A stretch of 64,000 nucleotides of DNA from Betaproteobacteria bacterium (GTDB taxonomy: Bacteria; Acidobacteriota; Vicinamibacteria; Vicinamibacterales; CAVVIG01). The position numbers and the translations under genes are program-made. The stretch is from contig JBLMXQ010000090.1 of the NCBI GenBank assembly GCA_050257855.1, forward strand, positions 624 to 64,623, in the 5' to 3' direction. The notes below the pieces were generated by a model. The model made no database searches. It was not told the origin of the DNA and saw only the letters and a program-made list of their open reading frames with translations. Below, piece by piece: positions 14,832-20,343 of this stretch. Every line of letters begins with the position of its first letter. The first letter of the stretch is position 1.

Positions 14832-15280
14832 GGGGGACCGCGTTTGCGGTCGTGGGCGCGCTGGGGTTCGTCGTTCAGATCGGGACGGTGGCGGCGCTGA
14901 CCAGGCTCGCTGGATGGAATGCCGCGTCGGCCACCGCGGCGGCGGTCGAGCTCGCGGTCCTGCACAACTTCCTCTGGCACGAGCGCTGGACGTGGGCGGA
15001 CCGCATCGGGCGGGGCGCGACGGGCGCGGTCCGCCGGCTCGCCCGGTTCCATCTGGCGAACGGCGCCACGTCGATGGGCGCGAACGTGCTCGGCGTCTGG
15101 GCCGCGGCGGCGCTGTTCGGACTCGATCCGATCGCCGCCAACGTGGCCGCCGTCGTCTGCACCGGCGCGCTGAATTTCATCACCCTGGATCGCTGGGTCT
15201 TCCTGGCCGATGGCGTGCGCGAGGGTGGCGTGCCCTCATCCCGGCGCGATGCTACTGCGCCCCGATCGCTTTCACCGTGA
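14828..15280 (+). CDS. GtrA-family membrane protein
   Basis: FAVVGALG, AVELAVLHNFLWHERWTW, NF...RWVF; ATGA overlap. Confidence 0.85.
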   Translation: MRGTAFAVVGALGFVVQIGTVAALTRLAGWNAASATAAAVELAVLHNFLWHERWTWADRIGRGATGAVRRLARFHLANGATSMGANVLGVWAAAALFGLDPIAANVAAVVCTGALNFITLDRWVFLADGVREGGVPSSRRDATAPRSLSP

Positions 15281-16013
15281 CGCCCGCCGCTTCGAGACCG
15301 TGGCGGATTCTCGCCGCGAGATCGTCCGAGCCGGGCGTGTCGCCGTGAACGCAGATCGTCTCCGCGTCGAGCGAGACGATGCTGCCGTCGGCGGCAACGA
15401 CCGTCCGCTCCTTCGCCATCCTGACGGCCCGGGCGACGACCGCCTCGGGATCGTGAATGACGGCGCCCGGCTTGCGGCGCGACACGAGCGAACCGTCCGG
15501 CTCGTACGCGCGATCCGCGAACACCTCGGCCGCCACGCGCAGCCCGGCCGTCTTGCCGGCCGCGAGAATCTCGGATCCCGGCAGGCCGAAGAGGATCAGG
15601 CCGCGATCGAAGGCAGCGACAGCGCGCGCGATCGCCGCCGACAGCTCGGGATTCCGCACCGCCATGTTGAACAGGGCGCCGTGCGGCTTGACGTGCTGGA
15701 GGCGCACGCCTTCGGCGGCGGCCACGCCGGCGACCGCGGCGACCTGATAGAGCACGAGGTCCTCGGCCTCGCGCGGCGTCACGTTCAGCTCGCGCCGCCC
15801 GAAGCCGACCAGATCGGGAAAGCCCGGATGCGCGCCGACCGCGACGCCGTGCGCCTTCGCCATCCTGATCGTTCCGCGGAGCACCGACGGATCGCCGGCG
15901 TGGAATCCTGCGGCGACGTTGGCGGAAGTGATCGCCTTCATCAACCCGGCGTCGTGCCCGATCGTGTAGGCGCCGAAGGATTCGCCCATGTCAGAGTTGA
16001 TGTCGATTCGCAT
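15252..16013 (-). CDS. pxpA: 5-oxoprolinase subunit A (LamB/YcsF family)
   Basis: IDINSDMGESFG, GFHAGDP, GAHPGFPD, HVKPHGALFN, EVFADRAY, ICVHGDTP. Confidence 0.93.
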   Translation of the reverse strand: MRIDINSDMGESFGAYTIGHDAGLMKAITSANVAAGFHAGDPSVLRGTIRMAKAHGVAVGAHPGFPDLVGFGRRELNVTPREAEDLVLYQVAAVAGVAAAEGVRLQHVKPHGALFNMAVRNPELSAAIARAVAAFDRGLILFGLPGSEILAAGKTAGLRVAAEVFADRAYEPDGSLVSRRKPGAVIHDPEAVVARAVRMAKERTVVAADGSIVSLDAETICVHGDTPGSDDLAARIRHGLEAAGVTVKAIGAQ

Positions 16014-16195
16014 GGCGGCGCTCGCTGGAGATACGTCGGCGCTGAAGTCGCGTGCCTGATTTGCGGACAGCGGACCGTGAACGTGACGCGGTGGCGGAAC
16101 GGACGGTCGGACGAACGGCGCCGGCAGCAAGCGCGGCCGGGAAGGGCGGCAGAAGCAATCGCCGGATCATCGCCGGCGATTCTACATCCACGCGT

Positions 16196-16236
16196 ACAAA
16201 ACAAAAGGGCATCGCGTGATTGCGATACCCTTTTGG
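16196..16236 (-). terminator. Intrinsic terminator
   Basis: Minus strand CAAAAGGGTATCGC-AATCAC-GCGATGCCCTTTTG-TTTT. Confidence 0.85.
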
Positions 16237-16299
16237 CTCACCGGCCTGGCTCCCCCAGCATTCACGGCGCCCTGCCGTAATCAGACCGGTGATTGCGAC
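16197..16299 (-). ncRNA. Candidate ~100-nt sigma-54-dependent small RNA, family unknown
   Basis: Lies between a -24/-12 motif and a terminator; outer stem CACCGGTCTG/CAGGCCGGTG with inner ACGGC/GCCGT hairpin; TCGCAATCAC present twice. Confidence 0.55.
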
Positions 16300-16309
16300 G
16301 AGTCCTTTC

Positions 16310-16325
16310 GCAATGCGCGTGCCTA
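16310..16325 (-). promoter_or_regulatory. Putative sigma-54 -24/-12 promoter
   Basis: Minus strand TAGGCACGCGCATTGC = GGCACG-N4-TTGC. Confidence 0.7.
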
Positions 16326-16396
16326 CTCCGGGCGTGCACGATTCCGCGAAAAATCCTGGCGGCCGGCAGCCGCGTCTCGCGCGCGCGTCACGACTT

Positions 16397-16412
16397 TGTC
16401 GCGACGGTTACA
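16397..16412. promoter_or_regulatory. Putative enhancer-binding-protein site (TGT-N10-ACA)
   Basis: TGTCGCGACGGTTACA about 70-90 bp upstream of the -24 box. Confidence 0.4.
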
Positions 16413-16487
16413 CTTTTTGCGCACCGGCCGCGCTGGCTCGTGAACGCGGCCCGCGCCGCGAGTCGGCCTGAACCGAGCGCCGCCCGG

Positions 16488-17036
16488 CTAGAACGTCGGC
16501 AGGCGATCGATCACTTCCGACAGCGCCGGGAACCGGCGGTCGCGCGGCGAGAGGATCGGGTCGCTCACCTTCCAGTCGATCGCCAGGTCGCGGTCGTTCC
16601 AGGCGATGCCGACTTCGTCCTCCGGATCGTACAGCTCCGTGCACTTGTATTCGACCTGGGCGACGGCGCTGACGACCGAGAAGCCGTGAGCGAATCCCGG
16701 CGGCACGTAGCACTGCCTGAAGCTGTCCGCCGACAACATGACGCCGACCCATTGCCCGAACGCAGGCGAGCCGCGCCGCACGTCGACGGCGACGTCGAAG
16801 ATTTCGCCCTCGACGACGCGGATCAGCTTGCCCTGCGGCCGGCGCACCTGGAGATGCAGTCCCCGGACGGTCCGGCCGAGGGAGAGCGAGTGGTTGTCCT
16901 GGATGAACGGGCCGGGCACGCCGGCGGCGCGGTACTTGTCCGCGCGGTAGGTCTCGAGAAAGTACCCGCGGCCGTCGCGGTGGACGTCCGGCTCGATCAC
17001 CAGGACGCCGGGGAGATCCGTCGGGAGGAACCGCAC
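16488..17036 (-). CDS. rfbC: dTDP-4-dehydrorhamnose 3,5-epimerase
   Basis: DGRGYF, QDNHS, RGLHLQ, DVAVDVRRGSP, PPGFAHGF, YKCT. Confidence 0.95.
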   Translation of the reverse strand: MRFLPTDLPGVLVIEPDVHRDGRGYFLETYRADKYRAAGVPGPFIQDNHSLSLGRTVRGLHLQVRRPQGKLIRVVEGEIFDVAVDVRRGSPAFGQWVGVMLSADSFRQCYVPPGFAHGFSVVSAVAQVEYKCTELYDPEDEVGIAWNDRDLAIDWKVSDPILSPRDRRFPALSEVIDRLPTF

Positions 17037-17037
17037 G

Positions 17038-17910
17038 TCACGGCTCCTGCTCGAGCACACGGAACAGATATTGCCCGTATTCGCTCGATTCCATCGCGTG
17101 CGCCAGCCGCCGCAGCGCGGCGCGGTCGATGTAGCCCATGCGGTACGCGATCTCCTCGACGCAGGCCACCATCAGCCCCTGCCGTTCCTCGATCGCCTGA
17201 ATGTAGCTCGACGCCTGCATCAGTGCCTCGTGGGTGCCGGTATCCAGCCAGGCGATGCCGCGCGCGAGCCTCTCGACGTGCAGGGCGCCGCGTTCGAGGT
17301 AGGCGCGGTTGACGTCGGTGATCTCGAGCTCGCCGCGCGGCGATGCCTTCAGGCCGGCGGCGATGCCGAGGACGTCGTTGTCGTAGAAGTACAGTCCGGT
17401 GACGGCGAGCGACGACCTCGGCTTCGCGGGCTTCTCCTCGATGCTGACGGGACGTCCCCGCGCGTCGAGCTCGATGACGCCGTACCGCTCGGGATCGCGG
17501 ACCTGATAGCCGAATATCGTCGCGCCGTGCTCGCGCGCGGCCGCGGCGCGCAGGTAGTCGGAGAAGTGCGCGCCGTAGAAGATGTTGTCCCCGAGGGCGA
17601 GCGCCACGCGGTCGCGCCCGATGAACTCCCGGCCGATCAGAAACGCCTGCGCGAGCCCCTCGGGCCTCGACTGCACCGCGTACCGGATGGACAGCCCGAT
17701 CTCCTCGCCCGCGCCGAGCAGCCGGCGGAAGCTCTCCTGGTCGTGCGGCGTCGTGATGACCAGGATCTCCCGGATGCCGGCGAGCATCAGCGTGGAGAGC
17801 GGGTAGTAGATCATCGGCTTGTTGTAGATCGGCATCAGCTGCTTGCTGATCGCCCGCGTCAGCGGGTGCAGCCGCGACCCCGATCCGCCCGCCAGAATGA
17901 TCCCCCTCAT
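17038..17910 (-). CDS. rfbA: Glucose-1-phosphate thymidylyltransferase
   Basis: [46 protein letters not shown]. Confidence 0.96.
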
Positions 17911-18989
17911 CGTCCCAGTCCCAGCCGCTGCCGATCATAGCGCCCGGCCTGCACGCGCGCACACCAGTCGCGGTGTCCGAGGTACCACGCGACCGTCTCG
18001 CGCAGGCCGGTCTCGAACGAGTGCCCCGGCGTCCATCCCAGCTCCCGCCGGATCTTCGTCGCATCGATCGCGTACCGGCGGTCGTGCCCGGGCCGATCCG
18101 GCACGAACGACTTCAGCGCGCGGTAGGAGGTGACGCCCTTCGTCGAGAGCGCCGGGTTGCCCGCGGCCGGCCACAGCTCTTCGAGCGTGTCGCACAGCCG
18201 GTCGACGACGTCCAGGTTGGTGCGTTCGTTGCCGCCGCCGATGTTGTAGCTCTCGCCCGGCCGGCCCCGCTCGAGCACCGTCAGCAGACCCGCGCAGTGG
18301 TCGTCGACGTGCAGCCAGTCGCGGACGTGGCCGCCGTCGCCATAGATCGGCAGCGGACGGCCGTCCAGCGCGTTCAGGATCATCAGCGGGATGAGCTTCT
18401 CGGGAAACTGGTACGGGCCGTAGTTGTTCGAGCAGTTCGTGACGATCGTCGGCAGTCCGTAGGTTCGATGATACGCGCGGACCAGGTGGTCGGCGGCCGC
18501 CTTGCTCGCCGCGTACGGCGAATTCGGCGCGTACGGCGTGTCCTCGCTGAACTGACCGCCCGGCCCGAGCGCGCCGAACACTTCATCGGTCGAAACGTGC
18601 AGGATGCGGAACGCCTCGCGCGCGTCAGGCTGCACGCCGTCCGCAAAGCGCCGCGCCGCATCGAGGAGCACGAACGTGCCGACGATGTTCGTGTCGACGA
18701 AGGGCTGCGGGCTGTCGATCGACCGGTCGACGTGCGTCTCGGCCGCGAGATTCAGCACGCCGTCCGGCTGGTGCTCGCTGAAGACGCGGGCCATCGCGCC
18801 GCGGTCGGCGATGTCCGCCTGAACGAACGTCAGCCGTGGATCGTCGAGGGTTCCCTCGAGGTTCAGCAGGCTGCCCGCGTACGTCAGCTTGTCGACTACG
18901 ACGACCCGGCAGGCCGTGTGCGCGAGCGCGCGCCGGACGAGATTGGAGCCGATGAAGCCGGCCCCCCCCGTGATCAGCAGTGTTCGCAT
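17907..18989 (-). CDS. rfbB: dTDP-glucose 4,6-dehydratase
   Basis: [46 protein letters not shown]. Confidence 0.96.
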
Positions 18990-19026: not shown

Positions 19027-20169
19027 TCATACCGCCGCGCCCTCCGGATACTGCAGGGCGAGCCGCAGCTCCTTCGCGAGCGAGTCCACGGTGGTGCCGC
19101 TGCGCTTCCAGGCGCCTTCGGTCTCGAACCGCAGGTCGCCGATGCGGCGCCCCCACGGCGCGATGACCCGGCCGATGGCGCGGAAGTCGGCCCGGTCGGC
19201 GTGCTCCTGATCGAGGCGGCGGATGACGTCGGGCGCGACGCGGATGAACGCCCGGAGAGCGGACGCCGACTTGATGCTGTACTTGCGCCCGTTCCACGCG
19301 CCGCCGAACACGAGCGCGATCTGCTTGAAGTAGTTGACGAAGAACTTCTTCGCGTCCTCCCGGAAGTCGGCCGCCTGCCGCGGGCTGCCGAGCGCGTCCG
19401 ACGCGAGCAGCTTCTTCAGCTCCTGTGCGAGCGGCGCCTGCGCCACGCGCCCGTGACCGACCCCGAGCAGCTTGATTTCGTCGTACAGCGGCGAGTCCTC
19501 CCGGTCGTTCAGCGCGCGGACGACGTCGTGAGCGGTCGCCAGGTTGTCGTCGCGGTACAGCTGCCGCCCCGACAGGCTGACCAGGTGCGACGCGTTCAAC
19601 CGGGTGTGCTTCGCGTTGATCGTCACGAACATCTGGACGACATGGTCTTCGGGCAGACGGTCGAAGATGACGGCCGGAACCGTGAAGTCCTCGCCGGCGA
19701 AGCGGTCGATGTCGGCGTGCAGGGCGAGTAACCGGTGCTGTCCGTCAATCGCCCGCAGGATGCCCTCGCGCTCGGGCACCTTCAGGATGCCCAGCCGCGA
19801 ATCGTCGGATGCCGGCTGGAACGTCAGCTTCTCGTCGCACGAGATGATGACGGCGCCCGGAATCGAGGGGAGATCGCGCGCCTGCCGGCACTGCTCGTAG
19901 TACTGCACGAGCTCGTCGATCTTCCGCCGGATGATCTGACGCTGGTACGCCTTCTCGCTGGACGCAATCCGCCGTTCGAGCAGATCCCAGTTCACTTTCG
20001 AGGGCGCCGCGCCGGGCCGCGCCTTCCCCCCGCGCACCGGCGGCTGCGAGCCTTCGCCGTAGCTCAGGACCTCGAACCGAACGAGCTTGTCGATGTCGCT
20101 GGCCGTCAGCGAAGCTTGATAGAATTGCACCCCGAACTGCTGCATGCGGATCGCGGCAACGTTGATCAT
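19027..20169 (-). CDS. DGQHR-domain protein (DndB/ParB-Srx-like)
   Basis: YQR, P..VII, IDGQHRL and FVTIN motifs in family order. Confidence 0.85.
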
Positions 20170-20225
20170 AGGTTTCTTCAGTCCCGTACGCTCAGGCTGG
20201 CCCGCTACACAGCTCAAAGAGACGG

Positions 20226-20255
20226 ATTGTATCGACCGGACGGCGGCCATCTCAA
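20226..20255 (-). promoter_or_regulatory. Putative sigma-70 promoter of the DGQHR-rfbBAC unit
   Basis: Minus strand TTGAGA-N18-TACAAT. Confidence 0.5.
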
Positions 20256-20343
20256 CGATTTTTTCGCCGCTCCTGCACCGTACCTGCACGAGCGAGCACG
20301 GTCAGTACACGACCTAAGCCTCTCACAATGAAGGAGTTATAAC

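Follow-up and report, generated by a model that had tools for sequence, protein, structure and literature searches.

Does the spacer between rfbC and pxpA in a genome of the order Vicinamibacterales merely end the rfb operon, does it lead into pxpA, or does it hold a gene of its own? The stretch of DNA that was analysed (the window) comprises 64,000 nucleotides (nt) of contig JBLMXQ010000090.1 (GCA_050257855.1), and the element in question is a predicted unit of promoter, structured RNA and terminator, read on the minus strand. Vicinamibacterales (Acidobacteria subdivision 6) are an abundant, mostly uncultured soil lineage. We found that the structured RNA is real and conserved across this order. 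By sequence comparison, it is a previously uncatalogued small-RNA gene family with a sigma-54-type promoter, and we consider it rather likely that the unit is an independently transcribed, ~100-nt small regulatory RNA gene of Vicinamibacterales.

A Conserved Structured RNA

Read on the minus strand, the region contains the stop codon of rfbC (16490-16488), a TGT-N10-ACA sequence, a small hairpin with a T-run, an AT-rich stretch, a -24/-12 motif, the RNA and its terminator, in this order. The original prediction had placed a unit of this kind between rfbC and pxpA, and matches to PF00908 and PF03746 confirm both neighbours. The TGT-N10-ACA sequence, the -24/-12 motif with its exact spacing, the branched stem and the terminator were all found where it had put them. 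The parts of the RNA are as follows.

16196-16298, minus strand: predicted small RNA of ~96-103 nt (fold, conservation and covariation)
16238-16292, minus strand: three-way junction core formed by P1, P2 and P3 (minimum free energy [MFE] fold, pair changes in the 95-copy alignment)
16292-16282 / 16248-16238, minus strand: helix P1, 11 base pairs (bp), enclosing P2 and P3 (MFE fold)
16280-16274 / 16268-16262, minus strand: helix P2, 7 bp, loop AGGGC (MFE fold)
16259-16257 / 16251-16249, minus strand: helix P3, GCU-GGGGG-AGC, loop GGGGG (MFE fold)
16249-16260, minus strand: invariant hairpin UGCUGGGGGAGC, order-wide R-GCU-GGGG(G)-AGC (no variation in 94 distinct copies)
16196-16235, minus strand: intrinsic terminator with U-run, stem 16235-16222 / 16215-16202, loop AAUCAC (terminator scan, fold)

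Transcription would start near 16298, 12 nt past the C of the -12 element, and the 3' end would lie within the U-run at 16206-16196. The MFE structure of 16300-16196 is the branched fold, at -55.2 kcal/mol (z = -5.61), and none of 200 shuffled sequences was as stable. The terminator scan gave a stem of 14 pairs, a loop of 6 nt and a T-run, with UUUUGUUUUGU following the 14-bp terminator. At least seven U within 10 nt 3' of the terminator stem were counted in 64 of 95 copies.

We compared the unit with 60 relatives by BLASTN. The sample from the window's own family comprised 36 other genomes, one per genus plus a second genome of the window's genus. The body of the RNA was found in 30 of these 36 (E <= 7.9e-15) with 80-94% identity, and the alignments begin almost exactly at the predicted +1. 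In the MAFFT alignment of the 30 family sequences (A1), the mean column identity is 84%; the core GAUUACGGCAGGGCGCCGUGAAUGCUGGGGGAGCC is nearly invariant, and P1 and the terminator covary. On the structure given above, 98% of the cells of A1 are paired and double changes occur in 12 of 37 pairs, a result reached by none of 500 shuffles.

The same structure was followed through the order in A4, a model-based alignment of 95 copies from 14 families. Here 96.3% of the cells are paired, double changes occur in 32 of 37 pairs, and the number of compensated cells is 423 against a shuffle mean of 94, with none of 500 shuffles reaching the observed value. When the 3' partners were slid by 1-3 columns, pairing fell to 40-47%. 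A4 was fitted to the structure, which favours it, but the independent alignment A1 gave the same helices. Double changes affect all 11 pairs of P1, five of the seven pairs of P2 and all ten pairs of the core stem of the terminator. Distant copies compensate in P2 too, for example by replacing ACGGC/GCCGU with GUGGC/GCCAC. Together with the promoter described below, these results bear out the claim of a self-contained unit for a ~100-nt structured RNA, reaching from promoter to terminator, as its elements are conserved and covary across the order.

P3 behaves differently. Its pairs are GC, CG and UA in all 94 distinct copies, whereas all other helices covary. This suggests that selection acts on the sequence of P3 itself, which may serve as a pairing seed for C-rich sites or as a hairpin recognised by a protein. 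The G-run of its loop is 4, 5 or 6 nt long, depending on the family. The junction strands J1/2 and J2/3 differ in length and sequence among families (J1/2 may be A, UA, GAUA, U, UGGU or AAUAU).

This G-loop hairpin is the invariant element of the RNA, and the original prediction had not singled it out. Attention had been drawn instead to a decamer, TCGCAATCAC, which stands at both 16298-16289 and 16225-16216. In the window's genome this repeat is real, as a 10-nt direct repeat appears in 16 of 5000 shuffles of the RNA. As a functional motif it did not hold up: it is kept in one of 30 family copies, and the next longest shared word, of 6 nt, occurs in the genome of the same genus.

Just past the terminator U-run, GUAC (16194-16197, minus strand) is kept in 27 of 30 family copies, UUUUGUUUUGUAC. 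It might mark the true 3' end or be part of a downstream promoter.

Promoter and Upstream Region

The elements upstream of the RNA are the following.

16310-16325, minus strand: sigma-54 type -24/-12 promoter TAGGCACGCGCATTGC (GG and GC in exact spacing)
16341-16373, minus strand: spacer between enhancer and promoter (terminator scan, AT peak)
16380-16420, minus strand: putative upstream activator (enhancer) region (sequence, half-site conservation)
16412-16397, minus strand: TGT-N10-ACA, with the overlapping palindrome CGACAAAGTCG at 16401-16391 (sequence)

The sequence AGGCACGCGCATTGC at 16324-16310 fits the form of a sigma-54 (RpoN) promoter, the consensus of which is TGGCACG-N4-TTGCW with GG at -24 and GC at -12. 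Of 95 copies, 90 have GG-N10-GC within the 45 nt ahead of the RNA, and in 88-89 of these 90 promoters, C/T, A and C/T follow GG, and TT precedes GC. Of the five misses, three read GGCACG-N4-TTGG, one is truncated at the end of a contig and L028 has no such motif. In 81 of the 90 copies, the model start follows the GC by 5-9 nt, which places the predicted start of transcription 1-7 nt before P1. The conservation that the original prediction called for is present in the RNA body, in the paired columns and in the promoter.

The TGT-N10-ACA sequence had been described as a NifA-type site. It is present in the window, but only 23 of 94 copies, most of them from the window's family, have the strict form upstream (2 of 94 have it downstream), and most copies retain only the TGTAA/CGTGA half. 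The NifA label thus says too much for a site that is kept in part, although no NifA was looked for. What is kept order-wide is a YGTRAB half-site (e.g., CTGTAAG or CGTGATC) at -135 to -75, found in 86 of 94 copies compared with 7 and 10 of 94 in control windows. In the same 94 copies, AT content peaks at -120 to -90 and at -50 to -30. The spacer of the window copy contains a terminator-like hairpin (16373-16359, terminator scan), which could end the rfb operon, and the AT-rich GATTTTTCGCGGAAT at 16355-16341, which may be a bending or IHF-like site. The pattern TTYYB-N2-8-RAWW occurs in the spacer of 22 of 94 copies, compared with one and none in control windows.

The layout is that of an activator-dependent sigma-54 promoter, and we infer that the promoter is used. 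The genome has one PF04552 match (rpoN) and 31 PF00158 matches (sigma-54 activators), 24 of them above 170 bits. The composite upstream site of the window occurs once in the whole genome. A stricter pattern yielded 27 sigma-54-like promoters in the genome, none with YTGTAAB upstream, a pattern that excludes the window's own GTGTAAC.

Two more sigma-54-like promoters of the same genome, outside the window, are followed by a strong terminator within ~60-80 nt (G000:C28 near 33661 and G000:C62 near 562, both on the minus strand). A tRNA gene directly precedes the C28 unit, which contains UUGAGCAUNAUUU twice. Neither unit is related in sequence to the RNA of the window, and both are candidates for further small RNAs.

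Distribution and Novelty

We built two covariance models, R1 from A1 and R2 from A4. R1 found the RNA in 70 of 151 sampled genomes of Vicinamibacterales, and R2 in 89 of the 151, including 84 of the 137 high-quality ones, in 14 of 19 families. When the phylum was sampled evenly, both models hit members of this order only and none of the 140 genomes that belong to other orders. The counts of genomes with the RNA (R2) per family are as follows.

f1: 10 of 12
f2: 10 of 12
f3: 0 of 12
f4: 1 of 3
f5: 8 of 12
f6: 12 of 12
f7: 0 of 12
f8: 11 of 12
f9: 6 of 7
f10: 1 of 12
f11: 0 of 1
f12: 3 of 11
f13: 0 of 2
f14: 1 of 1
f15: 1 of 2
f16: 3 of 4
f17: 0 of 1
f18: 10 of 11
f19: 11 of 11

The strict filters of large model searches lose weak copies. 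A filter-free search 3' of the DGQHR-domain gene, a frequent neighbour of the RNA (see below), in R2-negative genomes recovered five weak copies (28-36 bits) in f15, f5 and f2; at nine such loci of f3, it recovered none.

An exact-pattern scan of 185,579 species genomes gave at least 80 loci, and among the matches listed, R1 confirms 53. The titles of 51 of these name Vicinamibacterales, Vicinamibacteria, Acidobacteriota or Acidobacteria gp6, and one reads 'uncultured bacterium'. A metagenome-assembled genome titled uncultured Bifidobacterium (L107) also carries a copy, of 100 bits and typical of the window's family; this contig is probably mis-binned or mislabelled.

The claim that the RNA matches no known family stood up to a comparison with Rfam. 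In a cmscan of 15000-17500 against Rfam 15 (E <= 10), the RNA body had no match. Four matches at chance level fell elsewhere, the nearest of them to sodF_sRNA at 16379-16459, with 19.6 bits against a threshold of 46. At gathering thresholds, the whole window contains one tRNA only, and two tRNAs were all that was found in 20 loci with copies of the RNA from 13 families, among which are two extra copies. Literature searches, one of them judged on its top-ranked papers (none of which mentions Luteitalea or Vicinamibacter), returned no such RNA for Acidobacteria or Vicinamibacterales.

Paralogues

The window's genome has a single copy of the RNA (R2), while 12 of the 89 genomes hold two or three. 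In G053 and G115, the copies form tandem pairs ~340 nt apart, upstream of pxpA, and the five promoter misses include none of them. The three copies of G040 are at separate loci, the extra ones at unrelated loci, as is the extra copy of G162. In the extra copies of G040, the whole sequence of P2 is replaced and GCUGGGGAGC is kept. The invariant P3 hairpin is likewise retained in paralogues with an entirely different P2 (L263, L264).

The second copy in the genus g41 (family f6) has its own upstream sequence, the direct repeat GGAAAAAWTTYA, present twice ~21 nt apart. In all nine loci of this paralogue (L256-L262, L202 and L229), the RNA is divergent from a sigma-54 activator gene, which is adjacent in L202, lies behind an OmpA-family gene in L256 and is at about the L256 distance in the other seven. 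Two of the g41 activators were examined, and both are NtrC-type response regulators with the domains REC-AAA+-HTH_8. No activator gene was found beside the main copy in the flanks fetched for 93 loci, and the only loci with one were two of the g41 paralogue.

As the upstream sites of the paralogues differ (YGTRAB compared with two GGAAAAAWTTYA repeats), the copies would answer to different activators. The promoter and the terminator are kept in any orientation, through duplication and with new activator sites, which argues for a gene in its own right.

Neighbouring Genes

The genes around the RNA in the window are the following.

15252-16013, minus strand: pxpA, 5-oxoprolinase subunit A (LamB/YcsF), downstream neighbour (PF03746, E = 2.5e-100; NF003814, E = 5.1e-109)
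16488-17060, minus strand: rfbC, dTDP-4-dehydrorhamnose 3,5-epimerase, upstream neighbour (PF00908, E = 6.7e-65)
17038-17910, minus strand: rfbA of the rfb block (PF00483)
17907-18989, minus strand: rfbB of the rfb block, which extends to 18989 (PF16363)
19027-20289, minus strand: DGQHR-domain (DndB-like) gene (PF14072; 82% identity to the L050 protein)

In the window, pxpA starts 183 nt past the terminator; it is not followed by pxpB or pxpC, and the genes beyond it are on the opposite strand. A -10-like hexamer, TAGAAT (16179-16184, minus strand), is located 12 nt past the terminator U-run, and similar TAnnAT words (TAAGAT, TACAAT) occur 3' of the terminator in several family copies. The hexamer may belong to pxpA's own promoter; a consensus scan found no full sigma-70 promoter at this site and no sigma-70-like promoter in 15500-17000.

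Across the 93 loci, the RNA adjoins the DGQHR gene in 50, and this gene is the ancestral upstream neighbour in most other families. The ancestral order is DGQHR gene, RNA, pxpA, and in the window's family the rfbB-rfbA-rfbC block is inserted between the DGQHR gene and the RNA. Co-distribution of the RNA and the DGQHR gene was considered and rejected: in f3, 11 of 12 genomes have the gene and none of 12 the RNA, while in f18, two of 11 have the gene and 10 of 11 the RNA. Therefore, the linkage is one of synteny and gives no evidence of a shared function.

The DGQHR protein itself (DndB/DpdB-like, ~400 amino acids) is single-copy and present in 106 of 151 genomes. It is 73-92% identical across families, counting full-length matches and leaving out the query's own genome and a near-twin. 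The DGQHR domain is otherwise known from variable DNA-modification and defence islands, and such strong conservation is unusual.

Proposed Action and Alternative Explanations

If the unit is an independent regulatory RNA gene, an enhancer-binding protein would bind the YGTRAB/TGT-N10-ACA site ~100 bp upstream and activate sigma-54 RNA polymerase at -24/-12 across the AT-rich spacer. Transcription would then run from near 16298 to the intrinsic terminator near 16200, and the RNA would fold into the three-way junction, followed by the terminator hairpin and the U-tail. We infer that it acts in trans and that P3 is its active part: the G-loop (GCU-GGGG(G)-AGC) would base-pair at C-rich sites of target RNAs or be bound by a protein. 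Where pxpA follows closely, some transcription may read through into it.

The genome encodes Hfq (PF17209, 70.6 bits), and a terminator hairpin with a long U-tail is the layout typical of Hfq-associated small RNAs. Thus, features of this class are present in the form of the hfq gene and an intrinsic terminator with a U-tail.

Several results weigh against such a gene or against its action in trans. No sigma-54 activator gene was found on the window's contig in the PF00158 search. Only 21 of 95 copies have an ARN-type Hfq motif (ARNAR) in their linker. The target searches, which were crude and made in one whole genome, gave no clear candidate: the 13-nt complement of P3 with at most two mismatches has 210 sites in the genome, and the sole perfect one is the gene itself, while 8-mer complements near ~3000 crudely called gene starts gave 32 matches, none of which stands out. 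The duplex energy of the RNA core with pxpA start regions, compared with shuffles at 57 loci, has a mean z of +0.23, and neither pxpA nor DGQHR mRNAs contain a positionally conserved complement. A G-run of 4, 5 or 6 nt is also awkward for a contiguous pairing seed.

Metatranscriptomes did not help either reading. Six runs contained ~5% of the sampled words, and of the four that were examined, two were empty. The other two (X14 and X15) yielded three contigs of relatives at a depth of 2-5. In X14, one contig lies on pxpA, while the other spans the 3' part of the RNA and extends for 139 nt beyond the terminator. X15 gave a contig over the RNA core, which begins ~24 nt before the predicted +1 and continues beyond the terminator. 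As the two contigs on the RNA extend past the -12 element or the terminator, they may represent DNA or read-through. Contigs do not resolve the ends of transcripts and may stem from carried-over DNA, so that they are evidence neither way on expression.

The remaining points on this side come from the 49 of 93 loci (in f1, f8, f18, f6 and f10) at which pxpA follows the RNA on the same strand. In many of the 49, the pxpA start codon is 9-60 nt past the terminator; the gap is 11-13 nt in L012, L020, L024 and L029, and 33-44 nt in six of nine f18 loci. The f18 terminators have weak U-runs, and together with the short gaps this makes co-transcription with pxpA plausible in f18. These loci favour a cis-acting 5' leader or attenuator, or a dual-output unit, in which the sigma-54 promoter would be that of pxpA and the terminator would set the level of read-through and may release a stable small RNA. 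The lack of a sigma-70-like promoter around the window copy fits this explanation, and so does the M20 dipeptidase gene that takes the place of pxpA as the downstream neighbour in three of six f9 loci, as its function is also in amino-acid salvage.

However, the RNA does not keep a constant same-strand position directly upstream of pxpA. In 13 loci (all nine of f19 and four of five in f2), it is convergent with the DGQHR gene at a distance of 3-255 nt and has nothing downstream to lead. In eight loci, five of them among these 13, pxpA is upstream of the RNA, divergent in five and on the same strand in three. The distance to pxpA is 645-1115 nt in f6, and pxpA is absent from the fetched flanks in 36 of 93 loci, including those of f12, f16, f4 and f5. 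Extra copies in G040 and G162 and the g41 paralogue are at unrelated loci. No conserved antiterminator pairing was seen on inspection of A1 and A4, which was not a formal search. In the window, pxpA is separated from the terminator by 183 nt containing the TAGAAT hexamer. The attenuated pxpA leader, which the original prediction had kept as its alternative, is therefore disfavoured by the loci without a gene to lead; we regard a leader or dual-output unit as unlikely, though the most serious of the rivals.

The paralogues allow a further reading, in which each copy would be a sigma-54 output RNA with its own activator, and all would share P3 as a dock for a global RNA-binding regulator. Such RNAs would titrate a protein, in a niche like that of CsrB or 6S, and would not act by base-pairing. 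If true, an order in which CsrA was not detected has a protein-titrating RNA in a CsrB/6S-like niche. We offer this reading as speculation and think it rather improbable. A CsrB/RsmZ-type sponge in the strict sense was rejected, as CsrA (PF02599) was not found in the genome, which is 99.99% complete, and the RNA has only two G-rich loops where such a sponge would carry many GGA loops.

Three of the 32 8-mer matches mentioned above fall in a recurring word, GCCCCCAGCCCCAG, just upstream of -10-like hexamers of three genes (G000 C74, C77 and C80). This word may be a promoter-associated repeat.

A ligand-sensing riboswitch would use the junction as an aptamer, for example for a metabolite of the nitrogen or glutamate cycle, and the terminator as the expression platform. 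The three-way junction with covarying stems and an invariant P3, the terminator after a short linker and the frequent position just upstream of pxpA are all compatible with this. By contrast, the variable length and sequence of J1/2 and J2/3 and the full replacement of P2 in some paralogues are not what an aptamer would lead one to expect, and inverted or stand-alone loci speak against a switch in cis. As no Rfam riboswitch family matches and no switching helix was seen on inspection of the alignments, we find a riboswitch quite improbable.

Two resemblances to known RNAs were dropped. The hammerhead ribozyme has an invariant core of CUGAUGA and GAAA. Here CUGAUUA and GAA are found around the junction, J1/2 varies among families and there is no Rfam match to a hammerhead. 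An ANTAR reading was also set aside.

A small protein could start at a GUG in the 3' strand of P1 and continue for 19 codons, and in the window copy GGGGGAG is found 8 nt before this GUG. In many copies, however, the GUG is lost (the 3' strand of P1 being GGCG), linker indels shift the frame, and substitutions track base-pair covariation and not codon periodicity, so that a coding function is very hard to credit.

Finally, chance motifs around a hairpin that merely ends the rfb operon, the outcome that the original prediction had foreseen if promoter and stems were not conserved, have next to no probability: the element is directly 3' of rfbC in the window, but the same RNA, promoter and terminator occur in families without rfb genes at the locus, the covariation statistics contradict chance, and the rfb operon could end at the separate hairpin 16373-16359.

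The finding provides an RNA family for the whole order, supported by covariation and with a covariance model ready for use. It also defines the architecture of the promoter (enhancer site, AT-rich spacer and -24/-12 element) and offers the invariant hairpin as an experimental handle. The different upstream sites of the paralogues make signal integration directly testable.

Comparison with Known Systems

The closest known architecture is that of Pxr, a small RNA confined to one clade, Myxococcus xanthus and related myxobacteria. Pxr forms stem-loops and has a predicted sigma-54 promoter with a region for enhancer binding upstream; the NtrC-like response-regulator gene pxrR is immediately upstream of the RNA gene (PMC5684412). 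Some species have paralogues of Pxr (PMC5568312). Pxr gates development. The family described here is also clade-restricted and has a sigma-54-type promoter with an upstream site as well as paralogues, and the g41 paralogue adjoins a REC-AAA+-HTH_8 gene as Pxr adjoins pxrR. The differences are that it belongs to another phylum and matches no Rfam family in sequence or structure (whether Rfam includes Pxr was not checked), that its core is a three-way junction enclosed by P1 whereas Pxr consists of three serial hairpins, and that its main copy has no activator gene nearby.

Qrr1-5 with LuxO in Vibrio and GlmY/GlmZ with GlrR in Enterobacteriaceae are multi-copy small RNAs that depend on sigma-54 and an activator and have U-tailed intrinsic terminators, and some of them are located beside the activator gene. 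The RNA of Vicinamibacterales would be of the same kind, with multiple copies in some genomes, an intrinsic terminator with a U-tail and some copies beside an activator gene, although there is no homology. Qrr RNAs have conserved, single-stranded seeds, whereas a short hairpin with a G-loop is what stays invariant here. Moreover, in contrast to Qrr and GlmY, the paralogues here carry different upstream sites and so would answer to different activators, not to one.

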